Shown: positions 16,540-63,166 of the stretch, in pieces
Position numbering within the stretch: the stretch's first letter is position 1
How the letters are laid out: every line of letters starts with the position of its first letter
Source of the DNA: Candidatus Saccharimonadota bacterium
GTDB lineage: Bacteria; Patescibacteriota; Saccharimonadia; Saccharimonadales; Saccharimonadaceae
Reading direction: 5' to 3'
Assembly (NCBI GenBank): GCA_017459705.1
Contig: JAFUCJ010000005.1
Coordinates: 7,436-71,435, forward strand
DNA length: 64,000 nt
Notes under the pieces: generated by a model
The model's database searches: none
Told to the model about the DNA's origin: nothing
The model's input: the letters and a program-made list of their open reading frames with translations, nothing else
Position numbers and translations under genes: made by a program

Positions 16540-16549
16540 CCGTACTTCC

Positions 16550-16669: not shown

Positions 16670-16702
16670 TTTTCACAAACTCCGTTCTTATCACTTGTAC
16701 TT

Positions 16703-16731
16703 ATTTTACATCATTATTGACGTTATGTCAA
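16703..16731 (-). promoter_or_regulatory. Sigma70-type promoter TTGACA-17-TAAAAT upstream of the ugd remnant and LCP operon
   Basis: On the minus strand, TTGACA is at plus coordinates 16726-16731 with a 17-nt spacer and TAAAAT at 16703-16708. A GGAG-type RBS precedes the ATG at 16669. Confidence 0.6.
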
Positions 16732-16863
16732 CTTTCGTGCGATAAAACTATTCGTCCACACGGTTAGACGTATTTTTGTCAATATACGCTTAACCGTAGT
16801 ATTGTAGCGCAATATTCCAGCCGGAGTGAGATAATTCAGAACTTAACAAACGTAGCTTAGTAA

Positions 16864-18255: not shown

Positions 18256-18256
18256 G

Positions 18257-19291
18257 CTATTCCCCCCTCTTTATTATTTTGTGTAAAAATCGATATCGAC
18301 AGAAATTCTTCCAAACTACATTGCTATCCTTTTTTCCTATAGCTTTTACTGGTAGCCCGTTCTTTAATTTCTCCAAAACACCCATCTTTGCTACATAACA
18401 ATTTAATTTCTTTTCATCATCCTCCGATAAGCCTAATTGAGCAATGCAATCTTTAAAATCCGCTTCAAAATCTTCCTTTTTGTAGTCATCAATCAACGCC
18501 AAACGCTTCATCACCTCCCAGACCGCCTTCAACTGTTCATAAATCGCTATCTGCTTTGTTTCGTTATCAGAAACATTCTCGCTAACAAACCTCAACATTT
18601 CACATGTTACAAAAAGCCTATCTTTTATGTTTTGGGTAACACGCCATCGCTCTCTACTACGCGTTAAAGATTTGTTATTCATTCTATAATAATAAAACGA
18701 ATCATCAATCGCCAACATTTTGTCTAGGTCTTTGCAGGCTTCAACATTAATTAATAAATCTTCACCCAAACTCAAATCGTAATTAAACGATGGATTACCA
18801 TCCAATAATTCTCTTTTGTATATCTTTCCCCACAAACTATTTAGCTTATATCCAGTTACTAGTAGTGAGATAATTTCATCGTGTTCAATGATATTGTTGT
18901 CTTCAACGTTGGCAATTGGCATGACTATTCCACCGTCAGGATAATATTCTGCATTGAACCTAATGACGTCAACATCATATTTCTCCATTTTTTCTACAAG
19001 CGTCTTAATGGCACCGGATTTCAAAAAGTCGTCAGCATCAACAAACATTATGTAGTCGCCATTAGATTTTTGAAGTCCTAACTTTCTGGCTGCGTTTACG
19101 CCTAGGTGCTTCACGCTATGCACTTTTACGCAATCGGCATTCTTGGCAATATCAACAGATTTATCCGTCGAGCCATCATCCACAACGATAACCTCCTTCT
19201 CGGGGTAGTCTTGAGAAAGAACTGATTCTATACATCGTCCTATGTATTCTTCGCCATTGTAATTCGGAATTATTATGCTAACCTTCTTCAT
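18257..19291 (-). CDS. Glycosyltransferase family 2
   Basis: N-terminus VSIIIPNYNGEEYIGRCIESVLSQDY...IVVDDGSTD, with the DxD motif VDADD. Confidence 0.9.
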   Translation of the reverse strand: MKKVSIIIPNYNGEEYIGRCIESVLSQDYPEKEVIVVDDGSTDKSVDIAKNADCVKVHSVKHLGVNAARKLGLQKSNGDYIMFVDADDFLKSGAIKTLVEKMEKYDVDVIRFNAEYYPDGGIVMPIANVEDNNIIEHDEIISLLVTGYKLNSLWGKIYKRELLDGNPSFNYDLSLGEDLLINVEACKDLDKMLAIDDSFYYYRMNNKSLTRSRERWRVTQNIKDRLFVTCEMLRFVSENVSDNETKQIAIYEQLKAVWEVMKRLALIDDYKKEDFEADFKDCIAQLGLSEDDEKKLNCYVAKMGVLEKLKNGLPVKAIGKKDSNVVWKNFCRYRFLHKIIKRGE

Positions 19292-20585
19292 TGCTTACCC
19301 CCAGTTGCTGCCATTTTTCTTTCTCTTTGCTTTCAATATCATACGCAAGCTCTACAACGAAGATCAAAGGAAGCAATACGTAATATGCAGCGCCTTTGTA
19401 TTCAAACATCAGAAAAACAGTAAAAGCTTGAATCATTAGTACTTTACTTATTCGTCTAAGCCCCATAATTTCATACACTGTTAGCCCATAAGACAATATA
19501 AAACCTATCAACCCCCAAAATAGAATATTTCTCAAAAATCCAACGTCGGTATTCATGTAGTATAATCCATCATTTGTATACCGTCCATCGCCGTACATGA
19601 CCGTGTCTTCCGTAATATCAACCTGCCACATCTTTTGTAACTTATTAAAAGAACTGTCCCCCACATCACCAGTCGTTATTAAATTCGTAAACGGCGAACT
19701 CATCCACTCATACCAATCGCTCATTTCTGGAACTGTCTTTAATATGGCGCCACCTAAAGCCAGCAATATGACTAATGTAACCGTTGCAAATACTATATGT
19801 TTTATCCTATTTCTATTCCAATGTATAAAAGCGGCCGAACACGTGACTAAGGTTGCTACTAGGCCAACTCTACCATAAAACATATTCCCCAAAAAGCATA
19901 TCGTAAAAGCGGGCACGAACCATTTTGCACTTATTGCCGGCGAGCGTGTCCCGTATCTTAGATACATCAAAAACATAGCACTGAAAGTGCAACACAATGT
20001 TTCATGAAAACCCGCAAATCCCTGCCACCCAATACGAAACATATAACGGCTGGCATCCAAAGCACTCAAACTATCGAAAAAAGTTCCCTTGCTTGATATA
20101 GTAAACCACACGTCTTGCCATCCGGGCACAATAACTAAGAGAATCGTGCTTATCACGTATATCACGTGAGTTAAAGCAAAATAGAGCATAAAGTAATTCA
20201 TAACGTGCTCTCCTCCGTGTCTTTTAATCACCAAGCACAGTAATGCTACGTATGTTATGCCGCGCTTAAAGTAAAAAGCCAATGGCGTAAAATACGAAAA
20301 ATCCATCGTTTCATATAGTTGCGGGATCACAATAGACATTGCGATTAATAGCAACATAGCAATTACAGACATCCATTGCCTTGGTTTAAATTTTGTTAAA
20401 ATCTTTATATTCAAAATAATATAAAATAACGGAATCCCTATAGTTATTATATCCATTATTACGCCAGGTATTTTTAAGCTCGGAGTATATATAAAGAAAC
20501 AAAAAGCAATCAATGTTGCAAAACTTATTTTTGAAATCGATGGGTTATTAGAAGAGGCTATTATTTTCTGGAACATTTTTTTCAT
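19278..20585 (-). CDS. O-antigen/EPS polymerase-like membrane protein (Wzy-like)
   Basis: 435 aa, >10 TM segments with a large loop. It sits between the GT and flippase genes and overlaps both neighbours. Confidence 0.65.
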   Translation of the reverse strand: MKKMFQKIIASSNNPSISKISFATLIAFCFFIYTPSLKIPGVIMDIITIGIPLFYIILNIKILTKFKPRQWMSVIAMLLLIAMSIVIPQLYETMDFSYFTPLAFYFKRGITYVALLCLVIKRHGGEHVMNYFMLYFALTHVIYVISTILLVIVPGWQDVWFTISSKGTFFDSLSALDASRYMFRIGWQGFAGFHETLCCTFSAMFLMYLRYGTRSPAISAKWFVPAFTICFLGNMFYGRVGLVATLVTCSAAFIHWNRNRIKHIVFATVTLVILLALGGAILKTVPEMSDWYEWMSSPFTNLITTGDVGDSSFNKLQKMWQVDITEDTVMYGDGRYTNDGLYYMNTDVGFLRNILFWGLIGFILSYGLTVYEIMGLRRISKVLMIQAFTVFLMFEYKGAAYYVLLPLIFVVELAYDIESKEKEKWQQLGVSNEEG

Positions 20586-22873
20586 TTACCACCCCTCTCG
20601 TAGATCTTTTCCAACCTTTCGACTATTCGGTTTATAGAATAATCTTGTATTCTTAATGCTGGGACGACTCTTGACTTTTTAGCCTTATAAATATCATCTC
20701 GCCACTTTTTTGAATCTTCTGTTATATCTTCAAAAACAAAGTTCCGATTTATCTTAGTATTTGGCGAAATTGTCGAACTTGCGACAACTGGCAATCCATT
20801 TGCTTGAGCCTCGATCAAAGCCATGCTTAACCCTTCATACAACGAAGGAAACACAAATATGTCAAACATATTATATAAATAACAGACATCATTTCTATTA
20901 CCTAGGAATAAGACTCTTTCCGCAACACCTAATTCTCTCGCCACCTTTTTTAAATGCCCATTAAGATCCCCATCGCCAACGATAACCATCTTGTATTTAC
21001 TACTATCTAGTTCTTTAAGTATCCTCAATAAATGTTCTTGATTCTTTTCTTTCGAAAGTCGGCCAACGTGCCCTATTATTATGTCGTCATCAGAATATCC
21101 AAACTTCTTTCTATACTTCAATCTAATTTCCTCATCAAACAAATATTGATCAATCTCCACACCATTATATATTACTTCAAAATTATATCCCCTAAACAAG
21201 TTTTCTCCGGCTTCTTTTTCGCAAGCAATCAAATTCGTAGCATTTCTTTGCATCATGTTCGCCAAAAACTTATGATACATTTTTCTTCCAAATCTATCCG
21301 GGCAAGTCGTATGAGAGTGCGAAATTCGCACCCTGGCGGCATTTTTATTTGCTGCTTTCATCACTAAGGCATTTTCAAAAGCGACATTACCATGTACTAT
21401 ATCCGGCTTCTCCATCTTCATTATCTTGTTTAAATCCATATACCGTTTTATTGGGTTTCTCGTAGTCGGAATACGCAAGATCCTACACCCAAGTTTGATT
21501 ATCTCATCCTCATAATCGAACTTAAAATCCTTAAATGTAAGAAACACTATTTCATATTTCTGTTTGTTAGCAAGTATTCTAACTACATTCATTAAAAAGG
21601 TCTCTATGCCACCATAGTTCATCTTATTAGATACATACATTATTTTTTTCTTTTTTTGTGTTTCCGGAATGTGGTTGTTATTATTCGCAATTGCATTGTA
21701 GAGTCTTTCACAATTCCTAGCATCATGAAGGGTAAAAAAAATCTTCGCGCGCATACCATAGTCAACAGTTTTAGTAGCATTTATTAACTTTTTGATCGAT
21801 CGCAATATATCATCCATATTGTCAACAACTGGCCCAAAACCATCTTTTTTATAATCAAAGTATCCCTCTTGATGCTGCCGCGCACGATACTCCTTTAAAT
21901 CAAATTGGTAATAGATCACTGGTTTATTCAGAAATGCAAAATCAAACGCCACACTAGAATAATCTGTAACCATTAAATTACATTTGCTAAAGAACCTTTG
22001 AATATTATCGTCTGGCGATAGTATTTTGATATTCCTACTCGGTGAATTGAAAAACTTCAAGAACGAGCGCATATTTATATGAGGATAAAAATAAACTCTT
22101 ATATTATTTTCTTCAATATACTTTATAAAATCTTGATTTTTCAAAAACCCAGACCAACTCTTATAATAATCTGTACTTAAAAAATTTCTATTTTTAAACA
22201 TCTTGTTTTTATCTCCACCCAACCAATTTCTCCAAGTCGGCATAATAAGTATCGACTTTTGTTTTTGCTTCCTGCTAGCATCTTTTAAACTATCCCACCT
22301 AGGGAATCCGGTAAGTAGTAAACTATCCTTTTTATAGCCAAATTTTCCCAAAATATAATCATATTCCCGCTTTGCACCGCAAACAAAATATTTGAAACGA
22401 GTCTGATTATAGTAAATCCATTTTGAGTCATCCTTTGTAATTCCATGCTGCAGGAAGACGCGGTCCTTGTATAATCCGAGCTTCACATGTAAGATATACC
22501 AAAAAATCGGGGCAGGATTTCCAGATTTTTGACTGCTAATATTTAAGTTTGCAGACATATAAAATAGCCAGTGCTTCAAACCGCCCCATTTTATCACATT
22601 CCCTAATTTAGCCACCTTGTCATAGCCGGCAGAATCAAACGTCATCGCATAAAAACAATAATCCGACGGATGTTTTTCCCTCACATATTTATAGAAATAA
22701 TATCCATTATCACGCGCTTCTCCTTCTTCAGCAATTAGCCATAGATTGCGTTTTCTAAGTTTATTAACAACCCGGAATGCAGAAGATGGTACTAATAGCA
22801 ACAGAAAAACAAACGGCGCCAGCAAATCTCTCATTTTAAACTGTTTAATCGCATTAATAATCCGCCCCATCAC
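20582..22873 (-). CDS. Fusion: CDP-glycerol glycerophosphotransferase (TagB/TagF family) + GT4 glycosyltransferase
   Basis: The N-terminal half has ILIMPTWRNW and VTDYSSVAFDFAFLNKPVIYY (TagF family). The C-terminal half starts IMYVSNKMNYGGIETF and has FVFPSLYEGLSMALIEAQANGLPVV (GT4). Confidence 0.85.
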   Translation of the reverse strand: MMGRIINAIKQFKMRDLLAPFVFLLLLVPSSAFRVVNKLRKRNLWLIAEEGEARDNGYYFYKYVREKHPSDYCFYAMTFDSAGYDKVAKLGNVIKWGGLKHWLFYMSANLNISSQKSGNPAPIFWYILHVKLGLYKDRVFLQHGITKDDSKWIYYNQTRFKYFVCGAKREYDYILGKFGYKKDSLLLTGFPRWDSLKDASRKQKQKSILIMPTWRNWLGGDKNKMFKNRNFLSTDYYKSWSGFLKNQDFIKYIEENNIRVYFYPHINMRSFLKFFNSPSRNIKILSPDDNIQRFFSKCNLMVTDYSSVAFDFAFLNKPVIYYQFDLKEYRARQHQEGYFDYKKDGFGPVVDNMDDILRSIKKLINATKTVDYGMRAKIFFTLHDARNCERLYNAIANNNNHIPETQKKKKIMYVSNKMNYGGIETFLMNVVRILANKQKYEIVFLTFKDFKFDYEDEIIKLGCRILRIPTTRNPIKRYMDLNKIMKMEKPDIVHGNVAFENALVMKAANKNAARVRISHSHTTCPDRFGRKMYHKFLANMMQRNATNLIACEKEAGENLFRGYNFEVIYNGVEIDQYLFDEEIRLKYRKKFGYSDDDIIIGHVGRLSKEKNQEHLLRILKELDSSKYKMVIVGDGDLNGHLKKVARELGVAERVLFLGNRNDVCYLYNMFDIFVFPSLYEGLSMALIEAQANGLPVVASSTISPNTKINRNFVFEDITEDSKKWRDDIYKAKKSRVVPALRIQDYSINRIVERLEKIYERGGK

Positions 22874-23655
22874 ACCCTCCTCCTCACAGCGTTCACTGCA
22901 TATCCTGCAAAATTCACCGCACTAGCAAGCGCGTTAAGGCTTTCTTGTTTACGATACAATCTCCAAATGCGCAAAATCGCCACCACCTTATTTGCCGACA
23001 AAGTCCCATTGCTACGTCTATAGATCGCAAGCGGTTCATCAAGTCCATACGCACACTCGATTTTCTTCAATATCTTCCACCAAGTTGCCGTATCCTCACT
23101 TGCTATATTTGGCATTTCTATATCAACTTTACTTAGCTTTTTCATATCAAACATTACTGCAATAGTTGATATCGTCGTATTCCTTAGCGCCTGCTTGTAC
23201 GTAATCGTCGCCGGCACATGTACGACCTTCCCATTCGGTCGACCTTCCGCATCCGCAAACTCATACCCAGTAAACGAAAACTCGCAATCCTTCTCCTGCA
23301 TGAACTTGACCTGTCGCTCCAGCTTCTCTGGCAACCATAAATCATCCGCATCAAGAAATGCCAAATAATCACCCCGCGCCTCTTTCGTGCCGGTATTTCT
23401 GGCAATTGCGGCACCCTGATTTTTGTTCAAGCAAACTAATTTTACCTGCTCAGAAGCATGCTTACTGATAACGCCCACCGTATCATCAGCAGAACAGTCG
23501 TCAACAATAATCAGCTCCCAGTTATGATAGGTCTGGCCTTGTACCGAGCCTATCGTCTGCGCAATATATTTTGCAGAATTATGCGTTGGTATCACAATGC
23601 TCACTAATGGCGATCGTTGCTCCTGCGACTTCTTTTTCATCTCTTCTTCCAACAA
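22870..23655 (-). CDS. Glycosyltransferase family 2
   Basis: VSIVIPTHNSAKYIAQTIGSVQGQTYHNWELIIVDDCSADDT, with DxD motif LDADD. Confidence 0.9.
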   Translation of the reverse strand: MLEEEMKKKSQEQRSPLVSIVIPTHNSAKYIAQTIGSVQGQTYHNWELIIVDDCSADDTVGVISKHASEQVKLVCLNKNQGAAIARNTGTKEARGDYLAFLDADDLWLPEKLERQVKFMQEKDCEFSFTGYEFADAEGRPNGKVVHVPATITYKQALRNTTISTIAVMFDMKKLSKVDIEMPNIASEDTATWWKILKKIECAYGLDEPLAIYRRSNGTLSANKVVAILRIWRLYRKQESLNALASAVNFAGYAVNAVRRRV

Positions 23656-23771
23656 AAACTTCCTAATACTCCAATTATATCACACTTCCCACTCTTCGTC
23701 AAGTGCGCGTAATAGTCCGGCGCCCTTGCGGTAAAGGGGATGTTAGTGAGTTATCTGCTGAAACGATCCTG

Positions 23772-24347
23772 TCAGAGTTCAATTAAGCTGACAATTCGTC
23801 CGTTATCGTATTCGGCGAGGGCGTTTTGATATTTCCTGAATTCAGGAGTTTCGCGCTTTACGGCGGTATCTACTAATGGTAAGTCAAAACGCATTAGAAG
23901 TTCGGACAAAATAGCACGGATGGTGCGGCCATTGAAATCTTGGAACGGATGAACATGCAAGAATTCACCCTCGGCATAGGCTAAGGTTTCAATCTGTAAA
24001 TCTAGGGTGACAGATTTGTCTAGCCGAGCTTGCATATTGGCGACATACTCGTGCATTTTAATTGGTATCTCGTATGGTTCGGGCGGGAGCCAGTTGCCAA
24101 CCTGAACTGGCACATTGCGCCACTTACCTGCAATTCCGGGTATAATATCACCGATAATGCGAAAATGGAAGTTTTTGATTAAATCTTCATCAAAAGAATG
24201 GTTTATGAACTTGCAATCCGTAATGTCATCCAGTAACTGCAACAATTTCGGAGCAATTAAATCTGAAAGTTCGGCATAAGTAAGTTTGCCTTTGGTGGTA
24301 TCAAAAGTACGGGTAGTACTTTCTAGCGAGCGTTCTTCTGTAGCCAT
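23772..24347 (-). CDS. Fic domain protein (class I FicT-like toxin candidate)
   Basis: 191 aa with Fic motif HVHPFQDFNGRTIR. This matches the canonical HxFx(D/E)GNGRxxR except for G to F at position 6. Confidence 0.8.
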   Translation of the reverse strand: MATEERSLESTTRTFDTTKGKLTYAELSDLIAPKLLQLLDDITDCKFINHSFDEDLIKNFHFRIIGDIIPGIAGKWRNVPVQVGNWLPPEPYEIPIKMHEYVANMQARLDKSVTLDLQIETLAYAEGEFLHVHPFQDFNGRTIRAILSELLMRFDLPLVDTAVKRETPEFRKYQNALAEYDNGRIVSLIEL

Positions 24348-30553: not shown

Positions 30554-30689
30554 AATTTGCTTTGTGGTTGCTTCAAAAACATAAACGGAATTGGGAATTA
30601 ACAGAGGTAATTTGCTTTGTGGTTGCTTCAAAAACATAAACGGAATTGGGAATTAACAGAGGTAATTTGCTTTGTGGTTGCTTCAAAAC
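30554..30689 (+). repeat. 55-bp tandem repeat, 2.5 copies
   Basis: The unit AATTTGCTTTGTGGTTGCTTCAAAAACATAAACGGAATTGGGAATTAACAGAGGT occurs at 30554-30608 and 30609-30663, with a partial copy at 30664-30689. Each unit contains TTGCTTCAAA, the reverse complement of the upstream TTTGAAGCAA motif. Confidence 0.9.
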
Positions 30690-30759
30690 TACAAAGTATA
30701 GAAAACAATTTGATGGTACTTAAAACAACGATCTATGGAGAAAAACGCCGCACCAAAAT

Positions 30760-34315: not shown

Positions 34316-37246
34316 ATGAAATTTGCATCGAGCTACGAACCGAGTCAGTTTGAACCAGATATTTACGCCGCCTGGGAGACGAGCGGTGCCTTCAAACCCA
34401 CCACACCCACAGTTCCCATTGATAACAATGACGACGGCATCGACGATCGATTTGAGACTGATGTGATACTAGCCGATTCGAGCGCATTTGCGACAACGGG
34501 AGCAAGCGACGAAGCGAGCCCCGTAACGACGGGCGCGAGCGAGGAGGCGCGAGAATCGGCTAGTATCACATCCAGGGACACCTATTCGATCGTTATGCCA
34601 CCACCCAATGCCAACGGCAATCTCCATATCGGCCACGGCCTTACTGTCGCCCTAGAAGATTCCCTTACTCGTTTCTATCGCTTGAATGGTAAATCCTCTT
34701 GGTACATTCCCGGCGCCGACCATGCCGGCTTTGAAACTTGGGTCGTCTACGAACGCACCCTAGAAAAAGACGGTCATACCCGTTTTGAATTCGACCGCGA
34801 CACTCTCTATGCGCGCGTCTGGGATTTCGTTGCCATGCAGCGTGGCAACATGGAGTTGCAACTCCGTGCTCTCGGCGCTTCTTGCTCCTGGGGTGACCTC
34901 ACCTTTACCCTGGACGAAAACGTCATCGATCGCGTTTACACCACTTTCGAAAAAATGTGGAACGACGGCCTTATCTATCGCGGCGAAAAACTCGTTAATT
35001 TCTGCCCCAAGCACCAAACCGCCTTCGCCGACATCGAAGTCGAGCATAAAGACGAAAAAGGCACCCTCTGGGAGATTGAGTATCCACTGATGAAAAATGA
35101 CGATGCGGACATTTTGCGAGCATTTGCAACAACGGAAGCAAACAACGAAGCTAGCCCCGTAACGACGGGTGTGAGCGAGGAGGCGAGCGAAATGCCTGTA
35201 TCGTCATGTATTATCGTAAGCACCACTCGCCCCGAAACCCTTTTCGGTGACATGGCTATCGCCGTCAACCCAGCCGATGACCGCTACAAACCTCTGATTG
35301 GTAAGCATGTCCACCTACCTCTCACCGACAGGACGATTCCTATTATCGCCGACGAACACGCCGACCCCGAGTATGGCACCGGCGCCGTCAAGATTACCCC
35401 TGCCCACGATTTCGATGATTTTGAAGTCGGCACCAGGCACGATTTAGATCGCCTCCAAGTCATAAGTGAGGACGGCCATATGATCAACGTTCCTGATAAA
35501 TACATAAGCCTCACCCCCACCGAATGTCGCAAACAAGTTCTAAAAGACCTCGAATCCGCAGGTCTGCTCCGCGGCGAACAAAAAATCACTCACAGCGTCG
35601 CTCATTGCTACAAGTGCGGCACCGTTCTCGAGCCAACCCTGAAAGAACAGTGGTTTGTCGACGTTAAGCGCCTGGCGAGTGATGCTATTAGGCACCTAGA
35701 ACAGGGCGAAATCACTTTCTACCCCGAAAACAAACAACGTGTCCTTATCAATTATCTCGAAAACTTAAAAGATTGGAACATTTCTCGTCAAATCCCTTGG
35801 GGTATTGCGATTCCTATGTTCAGAAAGGTTACAGAGGAAGCCACCGACGAGCCCGAATGGATTTTTGACCGCCGCACCAATCTCAAAACCATCGAGAAAT
35901 CCGGCGTTACCTACGTCCGCGACGAAGACACCTTTGATACTTGGTTCTCCTCTTCCCATTGGCCAATCGTCTGCACCGACTGGTCTGAGGACAATCCCAC
36001 TCCTTACTACCCACTCAATGTCATGGAAACCGGCGCCGACATCCTTTTTGCTTGGGTCGCCCGGATGATTATGATGGGGCTTTACGTTACCGGCGAAGTT
36101 CCATTCAAGGAAGTCTATCTCCATGGCCTTGTCCTCGACGCCCACGGCCAGAAAATGAGCAAATCCAAAGGTAACGTCATCAATCCGATGGACATGGTGG
36201 CAAGATATGGCTCAGATGCTTTCCGCCTAGGTATTCTCCGCGGTCGCTCGGCTGGCATGAACCAAGCATTTAGCGAAAACTCCGTTGTCTCTGGCCGCAA
36301 CCTCTGTAACAAACTCTGGAACATCTCTCGTCTCATTCAATCTGTGGTTGACGAAGACGAGGAAACAGAGCCACGAGGCGCATTTGCGACAACGGGAGCA
36401 AACGACGAAGCAAGCCCCGTAACGACGGGCGCGAGCGAGGAGGCGACGAGGGGCTCCGTTTCCTCATCTTATACGACCAACAACCAGGGCGAAGACTGGA
36501 TTTGCCGCGAGATTAACCAGTGTCTAGCAGACGTCGCGTCCGGCATGCACTCCTACCGCTTCTCTGAGGCCGTCGAGACCTTATACCAGACCATCTGGGA
36601 CAAATACGCCGATTGGTTCCTCGAATCCCAAAAAATCTACCGTAACGTCCCGCTTCTCAAAACCACGTTGGAGCACCTTCTGATTGCTCTCCATCCCTTT
36701 GCTCCCTTTGTCACCGAGGCTATCTGGCAAAACCTCAGTTGGACTTCCGGTATGATAATTAACGCCAAATGGCCCGGAGAGCTCATATACGACCCGATAA
36801 GCGCAACCGAATTCGAAAGCCTTATCTCAGTCGTCTCCGAAGTCAGGACCACCTTGCAGGCCCTACCAGGCACCAATAACGCCAAAAAATACGCACTACT
36901 ATTCGATAACGATAGTCTTGTTGAGGATAACCTGCTCCTTATCAAGGCTCTTACTAAGGTCCCCGCTGTCACCGCTTTAAACGGCGCCCCACGCGGCCTC
37001 CGCCTTGCCCTAGCCAACCACGAGCTTTACCTCGACGTCCCCGAGAAGGTCGTCAAGGACTACAAGGACGCCTTGACCGACAAAATCCTAGCCGTTGGTC
37101 GCGAGCTGGACGGTCTGAATGCCCGTATGCTAAATCCAAATTATGTCGATAAGGCCCCTGCCCACCTCGTCAAGGAAACCCAGGACGCCATCAAGGAAAA
37201 ATCCGACCTCATCTCCCGCCTGAAAACCCAACTTGAACTCATCTAG
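34316..37246 (+). CDS. valS: Valine--tRNA ligase, with three in-frame repeat insertions
   Basis: Class I motifs PPPNANGNLHIGH and KMSKSKGN, TTRPETLFGDMAIAVNP, and a C-terminal coiled coil. 976 aa. Confidence 0.95.
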   Translation: MKFASSYEPSQFEPDIYAAWETSGAFKPTTPTVPIDNNDDGIDDRFETDVILADSSAFATTGASDEASPVTTGASEEARESASITSRDTYSIVMPPPNANGNLHIGHGLTVALEDSLTRFYRLNGKSSWYIPGADHAGFETWVVYERTLEKDGHTRFEFDRDTLYARVWDFVAMQRGNMELQLRALGASCSWGDLTFTLDENVIDRVYTTFEKMWNDGLIYRGEKLVNFCPKHQTAFADIEVEHKDEKGTLWEIEYPLMKNDDADILRAFATTEANNEASPVTTGVSEEASEMPVSSCIIVSTTRPETLFGDMAIAVNPADDRYKPLIGKHVHLPLTDRTIPIIADEHADPEYGTGAVKITPAHDFDDFEVGTRHDLDRLQVISEDGHMINVPDKYISLTPTECRKQVLKDLESAGLLRGEQKITHSVAHCYKCGTVLEPTLKEQWFVDVKRLASDAIRHLEQGEITFYPENKQRVLINYLENLKDWNISRQIPWGIAIPMFRKVTEEATDEPEWIFDRRTNLKTIEKSGVTYVRDEDTFDTWFSSSHWPIVCTDWSEDNPTPYYPLNVMETGADILFAWVARMIMMGLYVTGEVPFKEVYLHGLVLDAHGQKMSKSKGNVINPMDMVARYGSDAFRLGILRGRSAGMNQAFSENSVVSGRNLCNKLWNISRLIQSVVDEDEETEPRGAFATTGANDEASPVTTGASEEATRGSVSSSYTTNNQGEDWICREINQCLADVASGMHSYRFSEAVETLYQTIWDKYADWFLESQKIYRNVPLLKTTLEHLLIALHPFAPFVTEAIWQNLSWTSGMIINAKWPGELIYDPISATEFESLISVVSEVRTTLQALPGTNNAKKYALLFDNDSLVEDNLLLIKALTKVPAVTALNGAPRGLRLALANHELYLDVPEKVVKDYKDALTDKILAVGRELDGLNARMLNPNYVDKAPAHLVKETQDAIKEKSDLISRLKTQLELI
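34461..34571 (+). mobile_element. Family-A in-frame hairpin element, copy 1 (111 nt)
   Basis: Arm ATGTGATACTAGCCGATTC...GAATCGGCTAGTATCACAT is perfectly complementary over 19 nt. The 66-nt core (34484-34549) encodes AFATTGASDEASPVTTGASEEA. Confidence 0.75.
35097..35207 (+). mobile_element. Family-A in-frame hairpin element, copy 2 (111 nt)
   Basis: Arms ATGACGATGCGGACATTT / AAATGCCTGTATCGTCAT are imperfectly complementary. The core (35120-35185) encodes AFATTEANNEASPVTTGVSEEA. Confidence 0.7.
36354..36470 (+). mobile_element. Family-A in-frame hairpin element, copy 3 (117 nt)
   Basis: Arms AAGACGAGGAAACAGAGCC / GGCTCCGTTTCCTCATCTT. The core (36380-36445) encodes AFATTGANDEASPVTTGASEEA. Confidence 0.7.
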
Positions 37247-37692: not shown

Positions 37693-37889
37693 TGAACTAA
37701 CAATCGCCCACCTCACACAGCGATTGGGAGATCCCGCAAGGATCTGTTTGATGAACCGCCAGCAGACAACGCTGTTGGCAACCGAAATCAAGTCGACCCG
37801 GACAGCAAAACGCTTCACGGAAAATATGGCTATGTACTAAAAAACATAAGCAGTCAAATTTTTGCATGTCGGGCGGGGCAGGAAAACAG

Positions 37890-38969
37890 ATGAAAATACC
37901 AATTACGCAGACGAAAAAATGGCAAAAATTACAGCAGGATTTAGGCAATAAAACTTTTTTTGAGAAAAAATCAGACTTCGAGTATTTAGCCATCGAGAAG
38001 CACACCCCAGTAGGGAATTACCTTTTTCTTCCTTATGGACCAGTGGCGAAAAGTGACCAAGGATTTCTAGATGCGATTAATTCGCTGATTGATTTAGCGA
38101 GGAATCATCGCTGCATTTTTATCCGCCTCGAACCGCAAGACGCCGCTTATCGCGCCCTCCTTCCTATGAACAGCAAAAAAGTCAAAGATGTCGAACCGGC
38201 AGAGACCTGGGTACTAGATTTGCCAGATATTTCCACCGCGGACCCGCTGGATGATCAATCCATAAAAGCCCTCCTCCCGTCACGCCTACTTCGCTATTAC
38301 AAGAACATGGCAAAGCAGGGAATCACCATCGAAAAATCCCACGACCCAGCCGATATTCACTACCTTGTCGAGCTCCAATCTGCCCTCGCCGCCGAGAAAG
38401 GCATCACGACTTTCACCGCGGACTACTTAAAAACCGAGCTCGAGCAAGACTTCGCAACCCTCTACCTATTGTTGCAGCATATGTCGCCCGCAATGCTTGC
38501 ATCGACGGGTGACGCCGCTTGGGGGACCCCCACGCCAGCGCGCGTGGGGGAAAATGCGGCGACAGGACCCGTCGAGTGTAGCGACGACAGGACCCGTCAG
38601 GATGCTCCCTCGGCGGCAGGACCCGTCGAGACTGACGTTGATCATGTCCTTGCCGCCGGCCTCGTTTTTGACGACGCCACCACCCGTTACAATCTTCAAG
38701 GCGCCCAATCCGAAACCGGCAGGAAACTGCACGCCACCGGCATCCTTACCATCGAGCTCATCCTCGACGCCGTACAGAACGGTCAAAAAACCTTCGATTT
38801 CTGGGGTATTGCTCCCGAGGGGGCGCCAGCTACGCACCCCTGGGCTGGCTTCACCGCCTTTAAGAAAACTTTCGCTGGCCGCGAGGTCAAATACGCCGGC
38901 ACTTACGATTTACCCACCGACCCTTTGAGATATCGCCTTTATCAGTTCCTTCGCAGATTCCGCCATTAG
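37890..38969 (+). CDS. FemAB family peptidoglycan aminoacyltransferase (FemX-like), with a GC-rich in-frame insertion
   Basis: Start set to MKIPITQTKKWQKLQQ...YLFLPYGP (typical FemX-like N-terminus). The C-terminus FDFWGIAP...FKKTFAG is family-like. Confidence 0.8.
   Translation: MKIPITQTKKWQKLQQDLGNKTFFEKKSDFEYLAIEKHTPVGNYLFLPYGPVAKSDQGFLDAINSLIDLARNHRCIFIRLEPQDAAYRALLPMNSKKVKDVEPAETWVLDLPDISTADPLDDQSIKALLPSRLLRYYKNMAKQGITIEKSHDPADIHYLVELQSALAAEKGITTFTADYLKTELEQDFATLYLLLQHMSPAMLASTGDAAWGTPTPARVGENAATGPVECSDDRTRQDAPSAAGPVETDVDHVLAAGLVFDDATTRYNLQGAQSETGRKLHATGILTIELILDAVQNGQKTFDFWGIAPEGAPATHPWAGFTAFKKTFAGREVKYAGTYDLPTDPLRYRLYQFLRRFRH
38503..38631 (+). mobile_element. Family-B in-frame GC-rich hairpin element (one full unit plus two extra right-arm copies)
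   Basis: TCGACGGGTGACGCCGC...GGGGGACCCCC...GCGGCGACAGGACCCGTCG (38503-38575), followed by GACGACAGGACCCGTCA and GGCGGCAGGACCCGTCG. Confidence 0.65.
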
Positions 38970-56604: not shown

Positions 56605-59600
56605 ATGAAATACAGAGCCGGAGAGCGCCTTAGGGCCATAGAGTACGAGAAGTCACTCACTGAGTGGTGGAAAAAGAACAAAACTTTTGAGAAATCTATC
56701 GAGAATCGTCCGATTGATAAATCTTACGTCTTCTATGATGGCCCCCCGTTCATTACCGGTATGCCGCACCACGGCACACTTCTCAGCTCTATTGTAAAAG
56801 ACGCCGTCCCACGTTACTGGACCATGCAAGGCTGCCGCGTTGAGCGTCGTTGGGGCTGGGATTGCCACGGTCTCCCCGCCGAGAACTTCGTCGAGAAGCA
56901 GCTCGGCATTACTGACCGTCGCGACATTGGCACCAAATGGTCCCTCGAAGATTACATCATCAAGGCTCGCGAATCCATGGTCGCGAACTCCGAACTCTGG
57001 CGCGCCACCATCGACCGCGTCGGCCGTTGGGTGGATTTCGACAACTGCTACCGCACCATGAACAAGGATTTTATGGAGTCCGTCTGGTGGGCCTTCAAGA
57101 AATTATACGAAGCAGGGAAGATCTACGAGGGTCGCAAAGTCCTGATGTACGACACGAAATTTGCCACCCCGGTCAGCAAAGCCGAAGTCACTATGGACAA
57201 CGATGCCTACCAAACCGTCACCGACCCATCCGCCTACGTCAAATTCAAACGCCAGGATGCCGACGAGTATTTCTTGGCCTGGACCACTACCCCCTGGACT
57301 CTCATGGCCAACCGCGCTTTGGCTGTGAGTCCCGACATGGACTACGTCAAAGTCAAAGTTGGCGACGAGATCTACATTGTGGCAAAATCCCGCCTCGAAG
57401 CAGTTTTTGGCGACGCGGAGTATACCTTATTATCCGGGCGGGTGACGGCTGCGGAGGGGGACCCCCGCCGAGCCTGCGAGGTGGGGGAGGACAGCAGCCG
57501 GCAGGACCCGCCCTATATATTAAAGGGTAGCGACCTCGCCGGCCTCAAATACAAATCTATCGACGGCACTATTTGCCAGGTTTTCACCGCTGATTTTGTA
57601 GGCAATGAAGAGGGTACCGGCATCGTCCATATCGCCCCCGCCTACGGCGAAGACGACTACGATCTGTATCTGAAACATGCCGCAACGGACGACAAAACCA
57701 TGTCCGGGCAGGTGACGGCTGCGGAGGGGGAGGGCGTCACTCGGCAGGACCCGCCCCGTATTTCGTTTGTCGACACTCTCGACGAGAACGGCTATTATCT
57801 ACCAGAGTACGCCGCCAAGCTCCATGCCCTCGGCGTCCGCGACACCGACGAACACGGCATCCAGATTTGGGCCGCCAACAAGTTTATCGCGAAATGCCTT
57901 GAAGAACAGAGAATCATTTACAAAATCGAATACATCCAGCACGAATATCCATTTAATCCACGTTCCAAGGAACGCATTATGTACCGCGCTTTCCCAAGCT
58001 GGTTCTTTGACATAGAGGGGCAAAAACCTCTCATGCTAGCCGAGAACGAAAACATCAACTGGTTCCCAGCCTACTTGAAGCACGGCCGCTTCGCGAAGAA
58101 CATCGAAGCCGCCCCTGATTGGAACCTCTCCCGCGACCGTTTCTGGGCTACCGCCATGCCGGTCTGGAAAGGCGAAAAAACCGGCGCTATCAAAGTATTT
58201 GGCTCCTACGCAGAGCTTAAAGAATACTCCGGCAAAGAGCTAGATGACTACCACCGCCCATGGGTAGACGAGATAGAATTCGACGCTTATGTTGAGAATG
58301 GAAAGGTTATCTCAAAAAATGCCTTATCTGCAACTTTTGAGACCGTGTCCCGAAATCCTCACGAGGATTTCGAAGTGAGCGAGCCCCGTGACGACGGGCG
58401 CGAGCGAACGGGGTCGAAAAAGTTACAGGAAGGCATTTCCGAGTTAGACCATTTCACTCGTATCGAAAAAGTCCTCGACTGTTGGTTCGAGTCCGGCTCC
58501 ATGCCTTTCGCTCAGCTTCATTACCCATTTGAAAACAAGGACAAATTCGAGCGAAATTACCCCGCCGACTTCATCGTCGAATACGTCGGCCAAGTCCGCG
58601 CTTGGTTCTATTATGTTCATACGGTCAACACAGCCCTCGCCGAAATCGGCGCTTTTGGTGAAAAAGCAAAGCGCGGCCACAAGAACGCCTACAAAAACGT
58701 CATTACTACTGGTACCCTCGCAGGGAACGACGGCCGCAAAATGAGCAAATCTCTTGGCAACTACACCGACCCGAATGTCCTGATGGACACCTACTCGGCC
58801 GACGCCCTTCGCTTCCTCCTCCTCAGCAGCCCAGTCCTCTCTGGCGAAGATTTCGCCCTGCTCGACAAGGATGTCTCTGATGTCAACCGCAAGCTCGCTA
58901 TGCTCTGGAATGTTTACGACTTCTTCGTGACTTACGCCGAGATTGAGGGCTGGGATTCTGAGAATTCATGGCGTCCAGCTACCAAAGGTTTAGATTCACT
59001 CAAAAACCCGCTCGATGTCTGGATTATCTCGCGCTTGCATCAGACCAAGGCCAAAATCATTAACGGCATGTCCGAATACAATATCCCCAAAGCGCTAGAA
59101 GACGTCCTGCCGTTTATAGATGATCTCAGCAACTGGTTTGTTCGCCGCTCGCGCCGCCGCTTCAGCAAAAACGACGATCAAGAAGACAAAAACGAGGCTT
59201 TCTGGACTCTTTATACCGTTCTTGTAAAAACTGCTCAAGTTCTCGCTCCGTTTACCCCATTTCTTTCGGAGGAACTTTACCAAAAAATGACCGGCTCTAG
59301 CGAGTCAGTCCACCTTCTAGATTATCCTCAGGCAACCGAAGTAGATAGCGAGGTTCTGGAGAACATGACTCGCACTCGCACCATCATTACCGATGCACTC
59401 GCTCTCCGTATGCACAAGTCCGACACCGAGGCCCAGATTAAAGTCCGTCAACCCCTAAGTAGGCTCACCTACCTAGGCGACAAACTCGACGATTTCTACG
59501 AGCGGATCATTGCCGACGAAGTCAACGTGAAACAGGTCGAAAACGGCGATTCGCTCACACTCGACAAAACTATCACCCCCGAACTAGCCAAAGAGGGCTA

Positions 59601-59826
59601 CGCTCGCGATCTTGTTCGCGCAATTCAATCTGCTCGCAAGAATGCCAAACTTATGATGGACGACCGCATTAAGCTGTCCCTCTCGGTTGCTCTCCCCGAA
59701 GGCTACGAAGATTACGTCCTCACCGAATCCCAGGCCGACTCGTTCGAGCTTGGCGCCAACTACGCCCACGACGAAATCGCCAAAGTAAACGGCGAAAACC
59801 TCACTATCTCACTGGAAAAATCGTAA
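56605..59826 (+). CDS. ileS: Isoleucine--tRNA ligase, with three in-frame GC-rich insertions
   Basis: Class I motifs PPFITGMPHHGT and KMSKSLGN. 1073 aa. TGATATAAT (hexamer 56593-98) lies 6 nt before the ATG, with no SD. Confidence 0.95.
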   Translation: MKYRAGERLRAIEYEKSLTEWWKKNKTFEKSIENRPIDKSYVFYDGPPFITGMPHHGTLLSSIVKDAVPRYWTMQGCRVERRWGWDCHGLPAENFVEKQLGITDRRDIGTKWSLEDYIIKARESMVANSELWRATIDRVGRWVDFDNCYRTMNKDFMESVWWAFKKLYEAGKIYEGRKVLMYDTKFATPVSKAEVTMDNDAYQTVTDPSAYVKFKRQDADEYFLAWTTTPWTLMANRALAVSPDMDYVKVKVGDEIYIVAKSRLEAVFGDAEYTLLSGRVTAAEGDPRRACEVGEDSSRQDPPYILKGSDLAGLKYKSIDGTICQVFTADFVGNEEGTGIVHIAPAYGEDDYDLYLKHAATDDKTMSGQVTAAEGEGVTRQDPPRISFVDTLDENGYYLPEYAAKLHALGVRDTDEHGIQIWAANKFIAKCLEEQRIIYKIEYIQHEYPFNPRSKERIMYRAFPSWFFDIEGQKPLMLAENENINWFPAYLKHGRFAKNIEAAPDWNLSRDRFWATAMPVWKGEKTGAIKVFGSYAELKEYSGKELDDYHRPWVDEIEFDAYVENGKVISKNALSATFETVSRNPHEDFEVSEPRDDGRERTGSKKLQEGISELDHFTRIEKVLDCWFESGSMPFAQLHYPFENKDKFERNYPADFIVEYVGQVRAWFYYVHTVNTALAEIGAFGEKAKRGHKNAYKNVITTGTLAGNDGRKMSKSLGNYTDPNVLMDTYSADALRFLLLSSPVLSGEDFALLDKDVSDVNRKLAMLWNVYDFFVTYAEIEGWDSENSWRPATKGLDSLKNPLDVWIISRLHQTKAKIINGMSEYNIPKALEDVLPFIDDLSNWFVRRSRRRFSKNDDQEDKNEAFWTLYTVLVKTAQVLAPFTPFLSEELYQKMTGSSESVHLLDYPQATEVDSEVLENMTRTRTIITDALALRMHKSDTEAQIKVRQPLSRLTYLGDKLDDFYERIIADEVNVKQVENGDSLTLDKTITPELAKEGYARDLVRAIQSARKNAKLMMDDRIKLSLSVALPEGYEDYVLTESQADSFELGANYAHDEIAKVNGENLTISLEKS
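57433..57513 (+). mobile_element. Family-B in-frame hairpin element, long form (81 nt)
   Basis: TCCGGGCGGGTGACGGCTGC...GGGGGACCCCC...GCAGCCGGCAGGACCCGCCC with nested stems GGGCGGGT/ACCCGCCC and CGGCTGC/GCAGCCG. Encodes SGRVTAAEGDPRRACEVGEDSSRQDPP. Confidence 0.7.
57703..57756 (+). mobile_element. Family-B in-frame element, short form (54 nt)
   Basis: TCCGGGCAGGTGACGGCTGCGGAGGGGGAGGGCGTCACTCGGCAGGACCCGCCC. Encodes SGQVTAAEGEGVTRQDPP. Confidence 0.65.
58351..58419 (+). mobile_element. Family-A-related in-frame element (partial core) read in a different frame
   Basis: 10-bp hairpin CGAAATCCTC-AC-GAGGATTTCG, then CGAAGTGAGCGAGCCCCGTGACGACGGGCGCGAGCGA (about 90% identical to the right half of the valS core), then ACGGGGTCGAAA pairing back. 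Encodes ...VSEPRDDGRERTG. Confidence 0.6.
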
Positions 59827-59838
59827 TATTTGAGGATG

Positions 59839-60074
59839 GAGGCCTGGTAACCCATTTTTGGGGCATTAAATAGATTTGGGTCGTTGTAGTTTTTACAATG
59901 GCCCAGTCATGCGGGCGGAACTGCTGTATTATATAAGCAGTTCTTTTTTTCGTGTGCGTGGAATGATGTATTAATAGGAATATAGCCATTACCGGCTAGG
60001 GAGCCCGCATCTGACGGACCTTGTAAAAACCACAACTCTCCAAGTCCAGCTCCAAAAATGGGTTGCTAGGCCTC
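59839..60074. repeat. 236-bp imperfect inverted repeat (MITE-like or long RNA hairpin) enclosing the ileS terminator
   Basis: The left arm (59839-59916) and right arm (60003-60074) are complementary in blocks of 23 nt (2 mismatches) and 16 nt (1 mismatch) plus TGCGGGC/GCCCGCA. Confidence 0.7.
59918..59950 (+). terminator. Intrinsic terminator of ileS
   Basis: GAACTGC-loop-GCAGTTC followed by T7. Confidence 0.8.
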
Positions 60075-60741: not shown

Positions 60742-61071
60742 ATGGAAAAACAAATACAGGCTGCGGACTATCAGCAGCTCGCGGAGTTTGTAGACGCACT
60801 GATTGCTCGCAAATTCCCGGAAAACACAGAGAATCACGCGGAGCTTCGTGAGGAGTCTATCGCGAAGTTGAGCGATCACATTAATCAGCGAATTTTTGAA
60901 CAGCTAAGCGAGGAACAAATCGTTCGCCTAGGCGACATCGCTGATGCTCACTCCGACGACCCCGCGGCATTTTCCAAGTTTTTCATGGATGCCGGCATTG
61001 ACCTAAGCCGCACCGTCAAGGATGCCATGATTGAGTTTGGTAACCAATTCCTGGGAGGCGACAATGAATAA
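60742..61071 (+). CDS. Small acidic helical hypothetical protein (109 aa)
   Basis: Promoter TTGACT-17-TAAGAT (60691-60719) and RBS GAAAGG. Overlaps the next gene by 8 nt (60742-61071 vs 61064-63166). Confidence 0.6.
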   Translation: MEKQIQAADYQQLAEFVDALIARKFPENTENHAELREESIAKLSDHINQRIFEQLSEEQIVRLGDIADAHSDDPAAFSKFFMDAGIDLSRTVKDAMIEFGNQFLGGDNE

Positions 61072-63166
61072 TTTTGAACGCCCCCACACCAACAACGATG
61101 ACCTATATACTTCTTACGAGGATGCTGTCGGCTATACCTTCGACGCTCCTGACACGCCCAGTACGCCAAATATAATTGACGAGTTAGACAATACCGCCGA
61201 GCTATCCGAGGAGGCCCGCGCGACGTACGGCGATCGTGGTGAGAAAACTCTCAAATCCACCATCGAGCGCCTGCCGAATAAGATAGGGGAAGCTATCAAT
61301 AAAATCAAAAAATCACCAGCTTTCCAGCGCGCACTCGCACTCGTCGCTACCGGCGTTGCCGTAGTTGCTCTTACTGGTTGCAACGGCGACAAGCAGGAAC
61401 CCGAGGCCTCTACCACTCCTACCGAGACCACTCAGGCCGTCGAACCAGAGGCTCCAAAATATAATCCGGAGAACCGCACCAATAAAACCGAATCCCTTAC
61501 TGGCTCCGAGTTTCTCGACGAACTCATCGACGGCAGTTTTGAGCAGTACTCCAACCCGGGCGGCCATGATCGTAGCTATGCGAAGGATCCATCCTTGGCG
61601 GCCAAGGGCATGCCAGACATCTTTTCCGCCGGGTCCGTTGCTAACGTCGGCGAAACCCTTACCATGATGATTAAAAACGGCCTTATCGCCGACCCATATA
61701 ACCCTACTCCTGAGGAATGGGGCGAAGCGTATAAATATATCGCGTTTAGCGAGAAAGAACCAGCCGCTTTTGTCGCGATTGCTACCGGTTTGCCAGGGTT
61801 CAAGGACCTCTCTTACCGTGACGCCTCGGCCAAGATTGCTGCGATGACCGACGACGAGAAAAAAGATTTCCAGGACATGCTGCATCGCATTTTCGACCGC
61901 GCCACTTTTGAAAAAGGCACCGTCAGCGGCAATGTGAAGAACTATTATATCGTCGACCAGGGCAATGGCGACAAGATTGGTGAATCCAGCGATACTTATC
62001 TCTCTGAGGAAACCAGCACTTTGATTATGCATGTCTCTGACAAGGATCTCTACGACGACGATACCTATATGGTCACCAGCGACGGCCGTGTCGTGCTTGC
62101 CTCGGAATATGCTAATCCGACCGGCACCACTACGACGATAAGCGCACTCTTGCGTTGCTTCAACAACGACGTGGTCGTCACCTACACGAATAACACCACT
62201 GGCGAATCTGACAAAGTCACCATCAACGACAACACTCCTCCATCCGATGAAATCCCGACCAGCAACATCACTGATGATGAGGGTAATTCCGGCGATCATC
62301 AAGACGACAATGGGGGTCAAGGCTATGGCGGTGGTGGCCCTGCCAGTTCAGAAGATAATGGTTACGGTGGTGGCGGCCCTGCTAATCCAGACCCAACCCC
62401 AGACAACGACGGCTATGGTGGCGGTGGCCCCGCCAATCCGGATCCGACCCCAGAGCCGACTCCGGAACCCACCCCTGAGCCAACTCCGGAGCCTACTCCC
62501 ATTCCAACTCCAACCCCAACGCCGACACCCACACCTACGCCTACACCTACCCCCACGCCAGCACCGACCAATCAGCCCAAGAACGAACGAGCCGAAAGAG
62601 AGAACGCTGGTGGCGCAGGCGTTACCGAGCAGCCTATCAACAACAACGTAACACCAGTCACACCTGTTTCGGCGGACCGCGATAACGCCGATAGGACTCG
62701 TCGCGCCGAGGAAGATCGTCGCCAACAGGAAGAAGCCGATGCCCGTCGTCGCGCCGAAGAGCAGGCTGCGGCCGAGCGCAGAGCCGCCGAAGAAGCTGCC
62801 GCCCGTCGTCGTGCCGAGGAACAGGCCGAGGCCGAGCGTCAGGCTGCCGCTCGCCGCGCCGCCGAACAAGCCGCCTCCGAAGCCGAACGCCAACGTCTCG
62901 AAGAGCAAGAACGCCAGCGTCAGGCCGCCGAAGCCGAAGCTCGTCGTCTAGCTGATGAAGCCGCCGCTCGTGCCGAAGCTGAAGCACGTGCTCGCCAAGA
63001 AGAAGCCGCTGCTGCTGAGCGGCAACGCGCTGAGGAGCAGGCCGCCCGCGAACGCGCCCAGGCCGAGGCCGATGCCGCCGCCGCGGCGGCTGCTGCCGAA
63101 GCTGCGAGCCACGTCGATGACACCGCCGGCGAACGTGCCAATATATTTAATAGTGGCGACTTCTAG
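61064..63166 (+). CDS. Probable surface lipoprotein with low-complexity regions (GYGGGGPA repeats, PT/PE repeats, Ala/Glu/Arg-rich coiled coil)
   Basis: Start set to MNNFERPH. Lipobox-like ...VVALTGCNG. (PEPT)n/(PT)n tract and a long AEE(Q/R)AAA region. Confidence 0.7.

Follow-up and report, generated by a model that had tools for sequence, protein, structure and literature searches.

We analysed a 64,000-nucleotide stretch of DNA from a Candidatus Saccharimonadota bacterium (assembly GCA_017459705.1, contig JAFUCJ010000005.1, positions 7,436 to 71,435 of the forward strand; hereafter the window), in which two aminoacyl-tRNA synthetase genes, valS and ileS, share a short DNA core that is translated in different frames. 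In all of its copies in the window the core lies within a long hairpin element, three in valS and one in ileS. According to the sequences that flank the core, such elements fall into three sub-families with a common right hairpin, namely S1 (the valS type), S2 (carrying CGGAGGUUACGACCGAGG) and S3 (the ileS type). The genes and elements are as follows.

34316..37246, + strand: valS, valyl-tRNA synthetase (ValRS), 976 aa, with three S1-type elements (P0121, named valine--tRNA ligase of Candidatus Saccharibacteria bacterium, is 100% identical)
34460..34572, + strand: valS element 1, a 113-nt hairpin that precedes the HIGH motif and encodes DVILADSSAFATTGASDEASPVTTGASEEARESASITS (fold z-score -6.8; arm alignment)
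35089..35215, + strand: valS element 2, a 127-nt hairpin that encodes NDDADILRAFATTEANNEASPVTTGVSEEASEMPVSS (fold; arm alignment)
36354..36470, + strand: valS element 3, a 117-nt hairpin that encodes EETEPRGAFATTGANDEASPVTTGASEEATRGSVSS (fold; arm alignment)
56605..59826, + strand: ileS, isoleucyl-tRNA synthetase (IleRS) type 2, 1073 aa (open reading frame list and translation; orthologs are named isoleucine--tRNA ligase of Candidatus Saccharibacteria; the best solved relative is 8C8U)
58285..58446, + strand: segment of IleRS that is extra relative to insertion-free orthologs, aa 561-614 (MAFFT alignment of 121 IleRS; DNA compared with the empty site of L119)
58317..58438, + strand: S3-type hairpin element, 122 nt (arm alignment, RNA and DNA folds, covariation)
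58351..58372, + strand: left hairpin of the ileS element, CGAAATCCTC-AC-GAGGATTTCG, the S3-specific module (inverted-repeat pair; covariation helix 2)
58379..58405, + strand: right hairpin of the ileS element, GCGAGCCCCGTGACGACGGGCGCGAGC, which holds the matching core and is common to the three valS copies and all sub-families (covariation helix 3)

The 27-nt core GAGCCCCGTRACGACGGGCGCGAGCGA, with up to three mismatches allowed, matches the window at four positions, all on the + strand: 34516, 35152 and 36412 in valS, and 58381 in ileS. The average number of matches in 100 dinucleotide-preserving shuffles of the window is 0.00, so the nucleotide similarity between ileS and valS, from which a preliminary description of this DNA had set out, is far above the level expected from composition. 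No further core copy was found by nhmmer profile searches of the window. The ileS segment at 58371-58407 is CGAAGTGAGCGAGCCCCGTGACGACGGGCGCGAGCGA, and its valS counterpart at 34510-34542 is CGAAGCGAGCCCCGTAACGACGGGCGCGAGCGA. In valS, the codons GCG AGC CCC GTA ACG ACG GGC GCG AGC GAG belong to the peptide EASPVTTGASE, while in ileS the codons GAG CCC CGT GAC GAC GGG CGC GAG CGA give EPRDDGRER. The two frames lie one base apart, as had been described, with ASPVTTGASE in one protein against SEPRDDGRER in the other, and the peptides encoded by the shared DNA are EASPVTTGASEEA in ValRS and EVSEPRDDGRERTGSKK in IleRS. The translations also bear out what had been said of the single A/G difference: in the frame of ileS it turns AAC (N) into GAC (D), and PRNDGRER is indeed read in further S3 copies, while the stop codon (TAA, or TGA in the G variant) sits in the third frame of the core.

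Each of the four window copies caps a long hairpin of 113-127 nt, with fold z-scores of -4.5 to -6.8 against shuffled sequences and energies of -51 to -67 kcal/mol as mRNA. The plan of the element consists of a copy-specific outer stem of about 25 bp, a tandem G.A (UGAG/CGAA or CGAG/CGAG across copies), a short inner stem and, at a three-way junction, two small hairpins with NACG loops. The right hairpin, GCGA-GCCCCGU-RACG-ACGGGCGC-GAGC, is found in every sub-family, and the left hairpin defines the sub-family: it is UUUGCGACAACGGGAGCAAA in valS (S1) and CGAAAUCCUC-AC-GAGGAUUUCG in ileS (S3), with the variants AAATTCTT/GAGAATTT, GGACGGCT/AGCCGTCC and CGAGCC/GGCGAG in other S3 copies. The ileS element folds at -55.4 kcal/mol as RNA (z-score -6.6; -5.8 as DNA). 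Positions 58320-58348 and 58408-58435 form its outer stem, and the tandem G.A (UGAG/CGAA) that closes it leads to the three-way junction. The perfect 10-bp hairpin noted before the core was recovered (58351-58360 with 58363-58372). However, the pairing that had been given for the closing segment, ACGGGGTCGAAA with CCCCGT and TTTCGA, is wrong; folding and the covariation of nine copies place the closing segment ACGGGGTCGAAAAAG opposite the upstream GACCGTGT and AACTTTT.

For the covariation analysis, nine S3 copies were aligned without gaps and examined for pairing in the predicted structure of the window copy, with slid partners as the control. Paired cells make up 91.3% of the alignment, compared with 34-45% for the slid controls. 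Changes on both sides of a pair occur in 27 of 42 pairs, including 20 of 24 in the outer stem and 5 of 9 in the left hairpin, and the right hairpin switches between CCCGU/ACGGG and CCCGC/GCGGG (4 versus 5 copies). Since covariation extends over the nine copies to a left hairpin of their own, the ileS segment is a complete element of the sister sub-family S3 and not a torn-off valS repeat. The preliminary description had taken it for a part of the valS repeat, but it has only the right hairpin in common with the valS type. No match to an Rfam family was found, either at gathering thresholds over the whole window or at permissive E-values for the valS and ileS elements. A hammerhead-like core seen by eye (CUGAUGA in one stem) was rejected because it is away from the junction and not conserved.

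To place the insertion, 121 IleRS sequences at least 66% identical to that of the window were aligned with MAFFT. The site is empty in 82 of them, which read EIEFDIDGEHFTRIEKV, while the other 39 carry 23-74 extra residues exactly there. In the window, the main inserted block covers about 58306-58446 (141 nt, 47 aa), and FETVSRNPHEDFEVSEPRDDGRER, for example, is a peptide that spans the insert junctions. The peptide encoded by the element is found only in carriers of the same element, namely P0012 and P0060 among the IleRS, which hold the same S3 element at the same site, and P0172 and P0177 among the ValRS orthologs. The site lies just before the strand DVWFDSG and, when aligned with the IleRS2 structure 8C8U, falls at the tip of its CxxC zinc knuckle (TCPVCSGE), in agreement with the zinc-binding region suggested earlier. 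An AlphaFold2 model of IleRS built from 44 close orthologs had a mean pLDDT of 56, which was too poor, and it was not used.

The same ileS site is filled by at least four hairpin families among the 39 filled orthologs. For example, the closest relative, P0001, carries an S1 variant read as SEVPPVTTGGHERVE; another filler family has the ends GGGCGGGT/ACCCGCCC (GRVTAAEGD...RQDP), and two further families are also present. The insertions of families A to D at this enzyme have a common flank, DAYVxDG.V, which is missing from empty sites. Close relatives differ in occupancy, as P0003 is empty (80% identical by BLASTP, 89% over aligned columns) and P0001 and P0002 are filled. In the whole enzyme, there are six recurrent insertion sites, 72 of the 121 orthologs contain at least one insert, and close relatives vary in length between 953 and 1184 aa. 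As many as five inserts are present in a single essential enzyme.

The second, unrelated hairpin family, with the conserved ends GGGCGGGT...ACCCGCCC and the motif GGCAGGACCCG, also occurs in the window. It is found twice in-frame in ileS, at 57436-57513 and 57706-57756, giving GRVTAAEGDPRRACEVGEDSSRQDPP and GQVTAAEGEGVTRQDPP, and both of these sites are empty in most orthologs. Further copies lie in a FemAB-like gene (ORF 37866-38969) at 38502-38630, partly in triplicate, and at 62686-62705.

In ValRS, the site of element 1 is empty in more than half of the orthologs, and that of element 2 in 55 of 121; all three valS sites resemble the IleRS site in being recurrent and variably filled. One ValRS site contains the S1 element in either of two frames among orthologs, read as AFATTGANDEASPVTTGASEEA or ETVRDNGSGMSEEPRNDGRDEA, and S3, S2 and antisense copies likewise occur at ValRS sites. 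Inserts there add a net 37-45 aa, which equals the whole hairpin. Overall the inserts have 37-51 aa and are read in several frames, in contrast to inteins, which have at least about 130 aa with conserved splicing blocks and keep to a single frame. In 114 of 120 orthologs of the GTPase Obg, one and the same loop holds an insert, and these inserts come from at least six families.

Short fragments of the second family were also seen in Obg, such as EAVSAGPVE, in proteins P0242, P0243, P0265, P0282, P0298 and P0301 and at L054:5615-5804 (- strand). On either side of them lie long direct duplications, 18-36 nt of Obg sequence (KKNLIA-EAVSAGPVE-KKNLIADL), which in some cases come in triplicate and could be the footprint of an insertion mechanism.

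An exact scan with a 25-nt core through one genome per prokaryotic species found the core in at least 117 genome stretches, with 125 copies in the matches listed, and nearly all of these stretches come from Candidatus Saccharibacteria or Nanosyncoccus of ruminant or other gut metagenomes. A pattern scan of metagenomes found 3 loci only. The host genes include IleRS, ValRS, LeuRS, LysRS, Obg, LepA, MnmA, TsaD and others. A pattern specific to S3 detected nine copies, located in IleRS (twice), ValRS, Obg, a Der-like GTPase, an AspRS-like gene, a LysRS-like gene and two other genes. An assembly artefact is unlikely, because the hairpins recur at orthologous positions in independent assemblies. 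Two short contigs that bear the element, L011 and L038, are binned as Firmicutes (Acutalibacteraceae, Faecalibacterium). Since L038 is orthologous to the Saccharibacteria locus L014, these labels look like binning errors rather than a spread beyond the phylum.

About 77% of the 125 listed copies (96) lie within open frames of at least 600 nt, where they are stop-free and in phase with the host gene. The sense frame that gives PRNDGRER is used 45 times, the sense frame that gives PVTTGASE 28 times, and three antisense frames together 23 times, whereas the frame with TAA or TGA (frame 0) is used by none. Antisense copies sit in genuine genes such as ValRS, LeuRS, LepA, MnmA and TsaD, and the listed copies outside open frames are intergenic or at gene ends, none of them in the middle of a gene. 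For the S3 apex a single sense frame is free of stops, and it is the one in use in 9 of 9 copies. The number of stop-free frames per apex is at the level of shuffled sequences, and a multi-frame design of the apex was therefore rejected. The use of multiple frames is a filter and not a design. The earlier statement that one module is tolerated in two frames can be extended to the family as a whole, where several frames are in use.

The two parts of the hairpin differ greatly in conservation. When orthologous Obg copies are compared, the apex has an identity of 0.90-0.95 and the stems one of 0.62-0.83, against 0.57-0.70 for third codon positions in the flanks. The window copy and L120, an IleRS copy, differ at 7.5% of apex positions and at about half of those in the stems. 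Among 113 distinct copies with near-identical apices, the two arms of each copy are complementary to one another, and similar stems are found only between orthologous copies. The exception is the S3 pair of L120 and the ValRS copy L123, the stems of which are 70-85% alike with different left hairpins, which indicates that stems can travel with the apex. Modules are also combined freely: all four combinations of left-hairpin and right-hairpin types are present among S3 copies, and at the Obg site an S3 apex (L017) and S1 apices (L094, L070, L099) stand in recognisably similar stems. Two possible sources of the stems were tried. Copying from the host flank by fold-back was rejected as a general rule, as both arms are extra relative to the empty ValRS and IleRS sites, and copying from nearby DNA was rejected because arm matches within 3 kb on either side are not above the control.

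The elements also have a preferred strand. The top strand is on the C-rich strand in 99 of the 125 listed copies, including 22 of the 23 that are antisense to their gene. It folds better with RNA parameters in 96 of 118 copies, and stem mismatches are more often G:T (67) than A:C (38; p = 0.006). DNA-parameter folds of two copies showed no difference between the strands, so the strand preference based on folding comes from the RNA-parameter folds and the excess of G:T.

With respect to the strands of the window itself, positions 1-2617 form a classical origin region, in which the 3' end of dnaA (1-231) is followed, after an AT-rich spacer, by dnaN (510-1610) and recF (1616-2617). The + strand is C-rich over all 64 kb: GC skew ranges from -0.28 to +0.01 and is negative in 31 of 32 windows, and the cumulative skew falls in all but one. 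The leading strand of bacteria is usually G-rich, and the + strand beside the origin is the opposite here. A whole-chromosome skew disparity of a similar kind was reported for some Microgenomates (PMC7143001).

Taken together, we consider it rather probable, though well short of certain, that the ileS segment is one copy of a large superfamily of hairpin elements of about 115-120 bp, which are non-autonomous selfish DNA comparable to the Rickettsia palindromic elements (RPEs) and are translated through. Under this interpretation, a copy would persist in an essential gene only if it adds a multiple of three bases, it is free of stops in the frame used and it lies in a permissive surface loop. 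The in-frame, stop-free state is what is observed, and the surviving copies would be translated as a hydrophilic extra loop; for this reason the same DNA would come to stand as PVTTGASE in ValRS and as PRDDGRER in IleRS. The element probably acts as a folded single strand. Its conserved apex may be recognised by a putative enzyme or be kept uniform by gene conversion between copies, and the stems, which would need only to pair, may diverge neutrally while substitutions in one arm are compensated in the other. A conserved apex, stems that vary freely yet remain complementary, mosaic modules and a biased strand agree with action as a folded single strand and frequent exchange among copies; they are compatible also with a function of the apex at the host level or with mobility of the apex only.

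Several observations weigh against selfish, translated hairpins. The apex is near-constant in orthologous copies in which nearby synonymous sites are near saturation, and a selfish copy should decay, so frequent gene conversion or selection on every copy would be needed. Apart from L120 and L123, no pair of copies at different loci has similar stems among the 113 copies, although the hot spots seem to have turned over recently, which is awkward for a plain copy-and-paste process of the entire hairpin. In Obg, the outer right stem consists of native LIAD codons with the left stem as their complement, and the net insertion of 28-31 aa is below the length of the hairpin. We could define neither a target-site duplication nor terminal inverted repeats that are conserved; the IleRS site shows no duplication, but its nearest empty counterpart (L119) has diverged too far. 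Genes for a transposase, a HUH nuclease or a recombinase were not found in the window, and none was linked to the element. Finally, we infer from sequence that the inserts are translated; the strict respect for the host frame is the argument for it, against splicing or ribosomal bypass.

The constancy of the apex can also be explained if it is a functional single-stranded signal under host-level selection, for replication, repair, chromosome handling or protein binding, with stems that serve only to extrude it and a genic location that is incidental. This would account for an apex far more conserved than nearby synonymous sites, and kept whatever the frame or orientation of the host gene, on stems that are near-neutral yet complementary, for an orientation that tracks the C-rich strand and not the gene strand (99 of 125 listed copies; 22 of 23 antisense), and for sites filled in nearly all relatives, such as Obg (114 of 120). 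However, presence and absence vary freely between close relatives (P0003 against P0001 and P0002), unrelated hairpin families share the same sites, and a host signal would be expected mainly between genes and not in essential enzymes. Gene conversion among dozens of copies could equally fix the apex, and the mosaic combinations point to exchange. We regard a host-level signal as unlikely. The stems that are specific to their locus would instead be explained if only an apex of about 70 nt is mobile and homes into, or converts, the tips of pre-existing hairpins, including older elements. The S3 and S1 apices in similar Obg stems (L017; L094, L070, L099), the restriction of common stems to orthologous copies, the modules in all combinations and the DAYVxDG.V flank shared by the IleRS insertions of families A to D and missing from empty sites agree with it. 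But the sub-families at the IleRS site and at ValRS site 2 have unrelated stems, the net insertion of 37-45 aa in ValRS means that the stems came with the element, the stems of L120 and L123 are alike in different genes, and the stems were not taken from DNA within 3 kb on either side; mobility confined to the apex is a still more doubtful explanation.

Removal of the hairpins before or during translation, by intron-like excision from the mRNA or by ribosomal bypassing as in yeast mitochondrial byp elements and T4 gene 60, seems very improbable. Although the mRNA structures are very stable (-51 to -67 kcal/mol) and no function is conserved among the inserted peptides from one frame to another, every genic copy keeps its frame open, the S3 copies (9 of 9) do so in a single stop-free sense frame, and frame 0 is unused in the 125 listed copies, a constraint that a skipped or spliced element would not face. 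Moreover, with 23 copies in antisense, no one RNA signal could serve every copy, and no ribozyme or intron family of Rfam was matched. A similarity at the protein level, in the form of a shared peptide module or low-complexity linker of aminoacyl-tRNA synthetases with no DNA element behind it, is hardly credible at all: the two host enzymes in the window belong to the class I synthetases and their inserts lie in loops, but the same DNA gives unrelated peptides in the two frames, which refutes it, and this DNA also occurs in Obg, LepA, MnmA, LysRS, between genes and in antisense, while most orthologs lack the insert.

The present elements can be compared with systems already described. RPE-1 to RPE-10 are hairpin repeats of about 100-150 bp that lie in-frame in essential genes (Ogata et al. 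2000, as summarised in PMC10969869). Going by that summary, the likeness is extensive: short hairpin repeats in several families, a host-dependent organism with a reduced genome, in-frame positions in unrelated essential genes, apparently translated surface loops and no encoded transposase. However, the phylum is different, and the sequence family probably is too. RPEs are reported in the same summary with a conserved peptide per family (PMC10969869), in contrast to the two sense and three antisense frames found here. Moreover, only the three-way-junction apex is conserved in the present elements, with stems specific to each copy, recurrent hot spots occupied by different families and a bias to one strand. 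Membership in the RPE families proper is unlikely, judged by phylum and G+C content.

[quoted passage not shown] MITEs have terminal inverted repeats common to their copies, target-site duplications and a parent insertion sequence (IS), whereas here the arms are unrelated between non-orthologous copies (among 113), no duplication was found and no parent IS is known. Repetitive extragenic palindromic (REP) sequences are 20-40 nt long, lie outside genes and bear a GTAG or CGTC tag (PMC3733652). The systems formed by REP and BIME sequences with RAYT (TnpA-REP), together with IS200/IS605, resemble the present elements in that the hairpin is the functional unit, probably as folded single-stranded DNA, the orientation bias is related to replication, and structure is conserved more than sequence. 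The elements described here differ in their length (113-127 nt), in the location of about 77% of the listed copies within genes and in their branched apex, and no RAYT gene was found in the window, to which that search was limited. The attC sites of integrons, as generally known, are also imperfect palindromes recognised as a folded single strand, with structure kept over sequence and a strand preference. They have a conserved base and a variable tip, flank gene cassettes and do not lie within open reading frames, while in the present elements the tip is conserved, the base is variable and the location is mostly within open reading frames.

Palindromes embedded in protein-coding genes of reduced genomes are further known from the mitochondria of Nematomorpha and, as GC clusters and byp elements, from those of yeast. 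The byp elements break the frame and are bypassed by the ribosome, whereas here the frame is kept. In Nematomorpha, the coding palindromes are long perfect repeats, both arms of which are translated and encode conserved protein regions (PMC6649704). Unlike the elements here, they are not dispersed repeats with a common apex. The resemblance to the terminal repeats of adeno-associated virus is in shape only, with a long stem, two arms at a three-way junction and about 120-145 nt, and a relationship is unsupported. These repeats and the T-shaped terminal hairpins of parvoviruses are the ends of a linear viral genome and are conserved in sequence.

Within open-access papers, we found no such elements reported for Saccharibacteria, Patescibacteria or other bacteria of candidate phyla, and the family in Saccharibacteria is apparently new and undescribed. 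To our knowledge, translated gene-invading repeats have been thought largely peculiar to Rickettsia and a few organelles. They would now extend to Saccharibacteria, which belong to the candidate phyla radiation and have genomes near 1 Mb; the phenomenon would be larger in scale there and more dynamic, with one module read in as many as five frames. Through the inserts, proteins become longer and more varied in length, and alignments, phylogenies and gene calling in metagenome-assembled genomes can be confused. As known transposition schemes fail to explain a conserved branched apex with copy-unique stems and a one-strand orientation, an undescribed hairpin-based mechanism may exist. More speculatively, the apex could be more than a transposon relic, namely an active module of single-stranded DNA (or RNA) that is maintained in every copy, on stems of any sequence that pairs, either as the homing site of a putative hairpin-specific recombinase or nuclease that moves or converts apices, or as a strand-oriented chromosomal signal; we put this forward as a tentative idea with the odds against it. 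If true, it would mean mobility or maintenance without terminal repeats or target duplications, within essential genes, and a continual remodelling of surface loops in the core proteome of an ultra-small episymbiont.

Other repeats and features were observed in the window. The spacer just 3' of ileS (59873-60046) contains a long imperfect inverted repeat, with 44-nt arms 86 nt apart, which is unrelated to the core family (A). An intergenic region at 30554-30718, between a Schlafen/AlbA_2-HATPase gene and a HerA-like (DUF87) gene, consists of a 55-nt tandem unit in two identical copies and a third, diverged one. The ORF at 61031-63166 (711 aa, G+C content 58%) has no Pfam match; at 62729-63064 it contains internal repeats of 60 nt, in which codons for Ala, Glu and Arg abound.

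Positions 16000-24000 form an island of low G+C content (35-41%, compared with 45-55% elsewhere), which contains glycosyltransferases, a CDP-glycerol glycerophosphotransferase and a Polysacc_synt transporter, a gene content of polysaccharide or teichoic-acid type, and this region was probably acquired horizontally. Just upstream of the island (12-16 kb, 46-50% G+C) are genes for CpsB (13295-13999), a Wzz/ParA-like tyrosine kinase (13999-15360) and LytR-CpsA-Psr (15394-16539). A Fic/DOC gene is located just upstream of these three, at 11390-12490, and another at the other end of the island, at 23772-24347.

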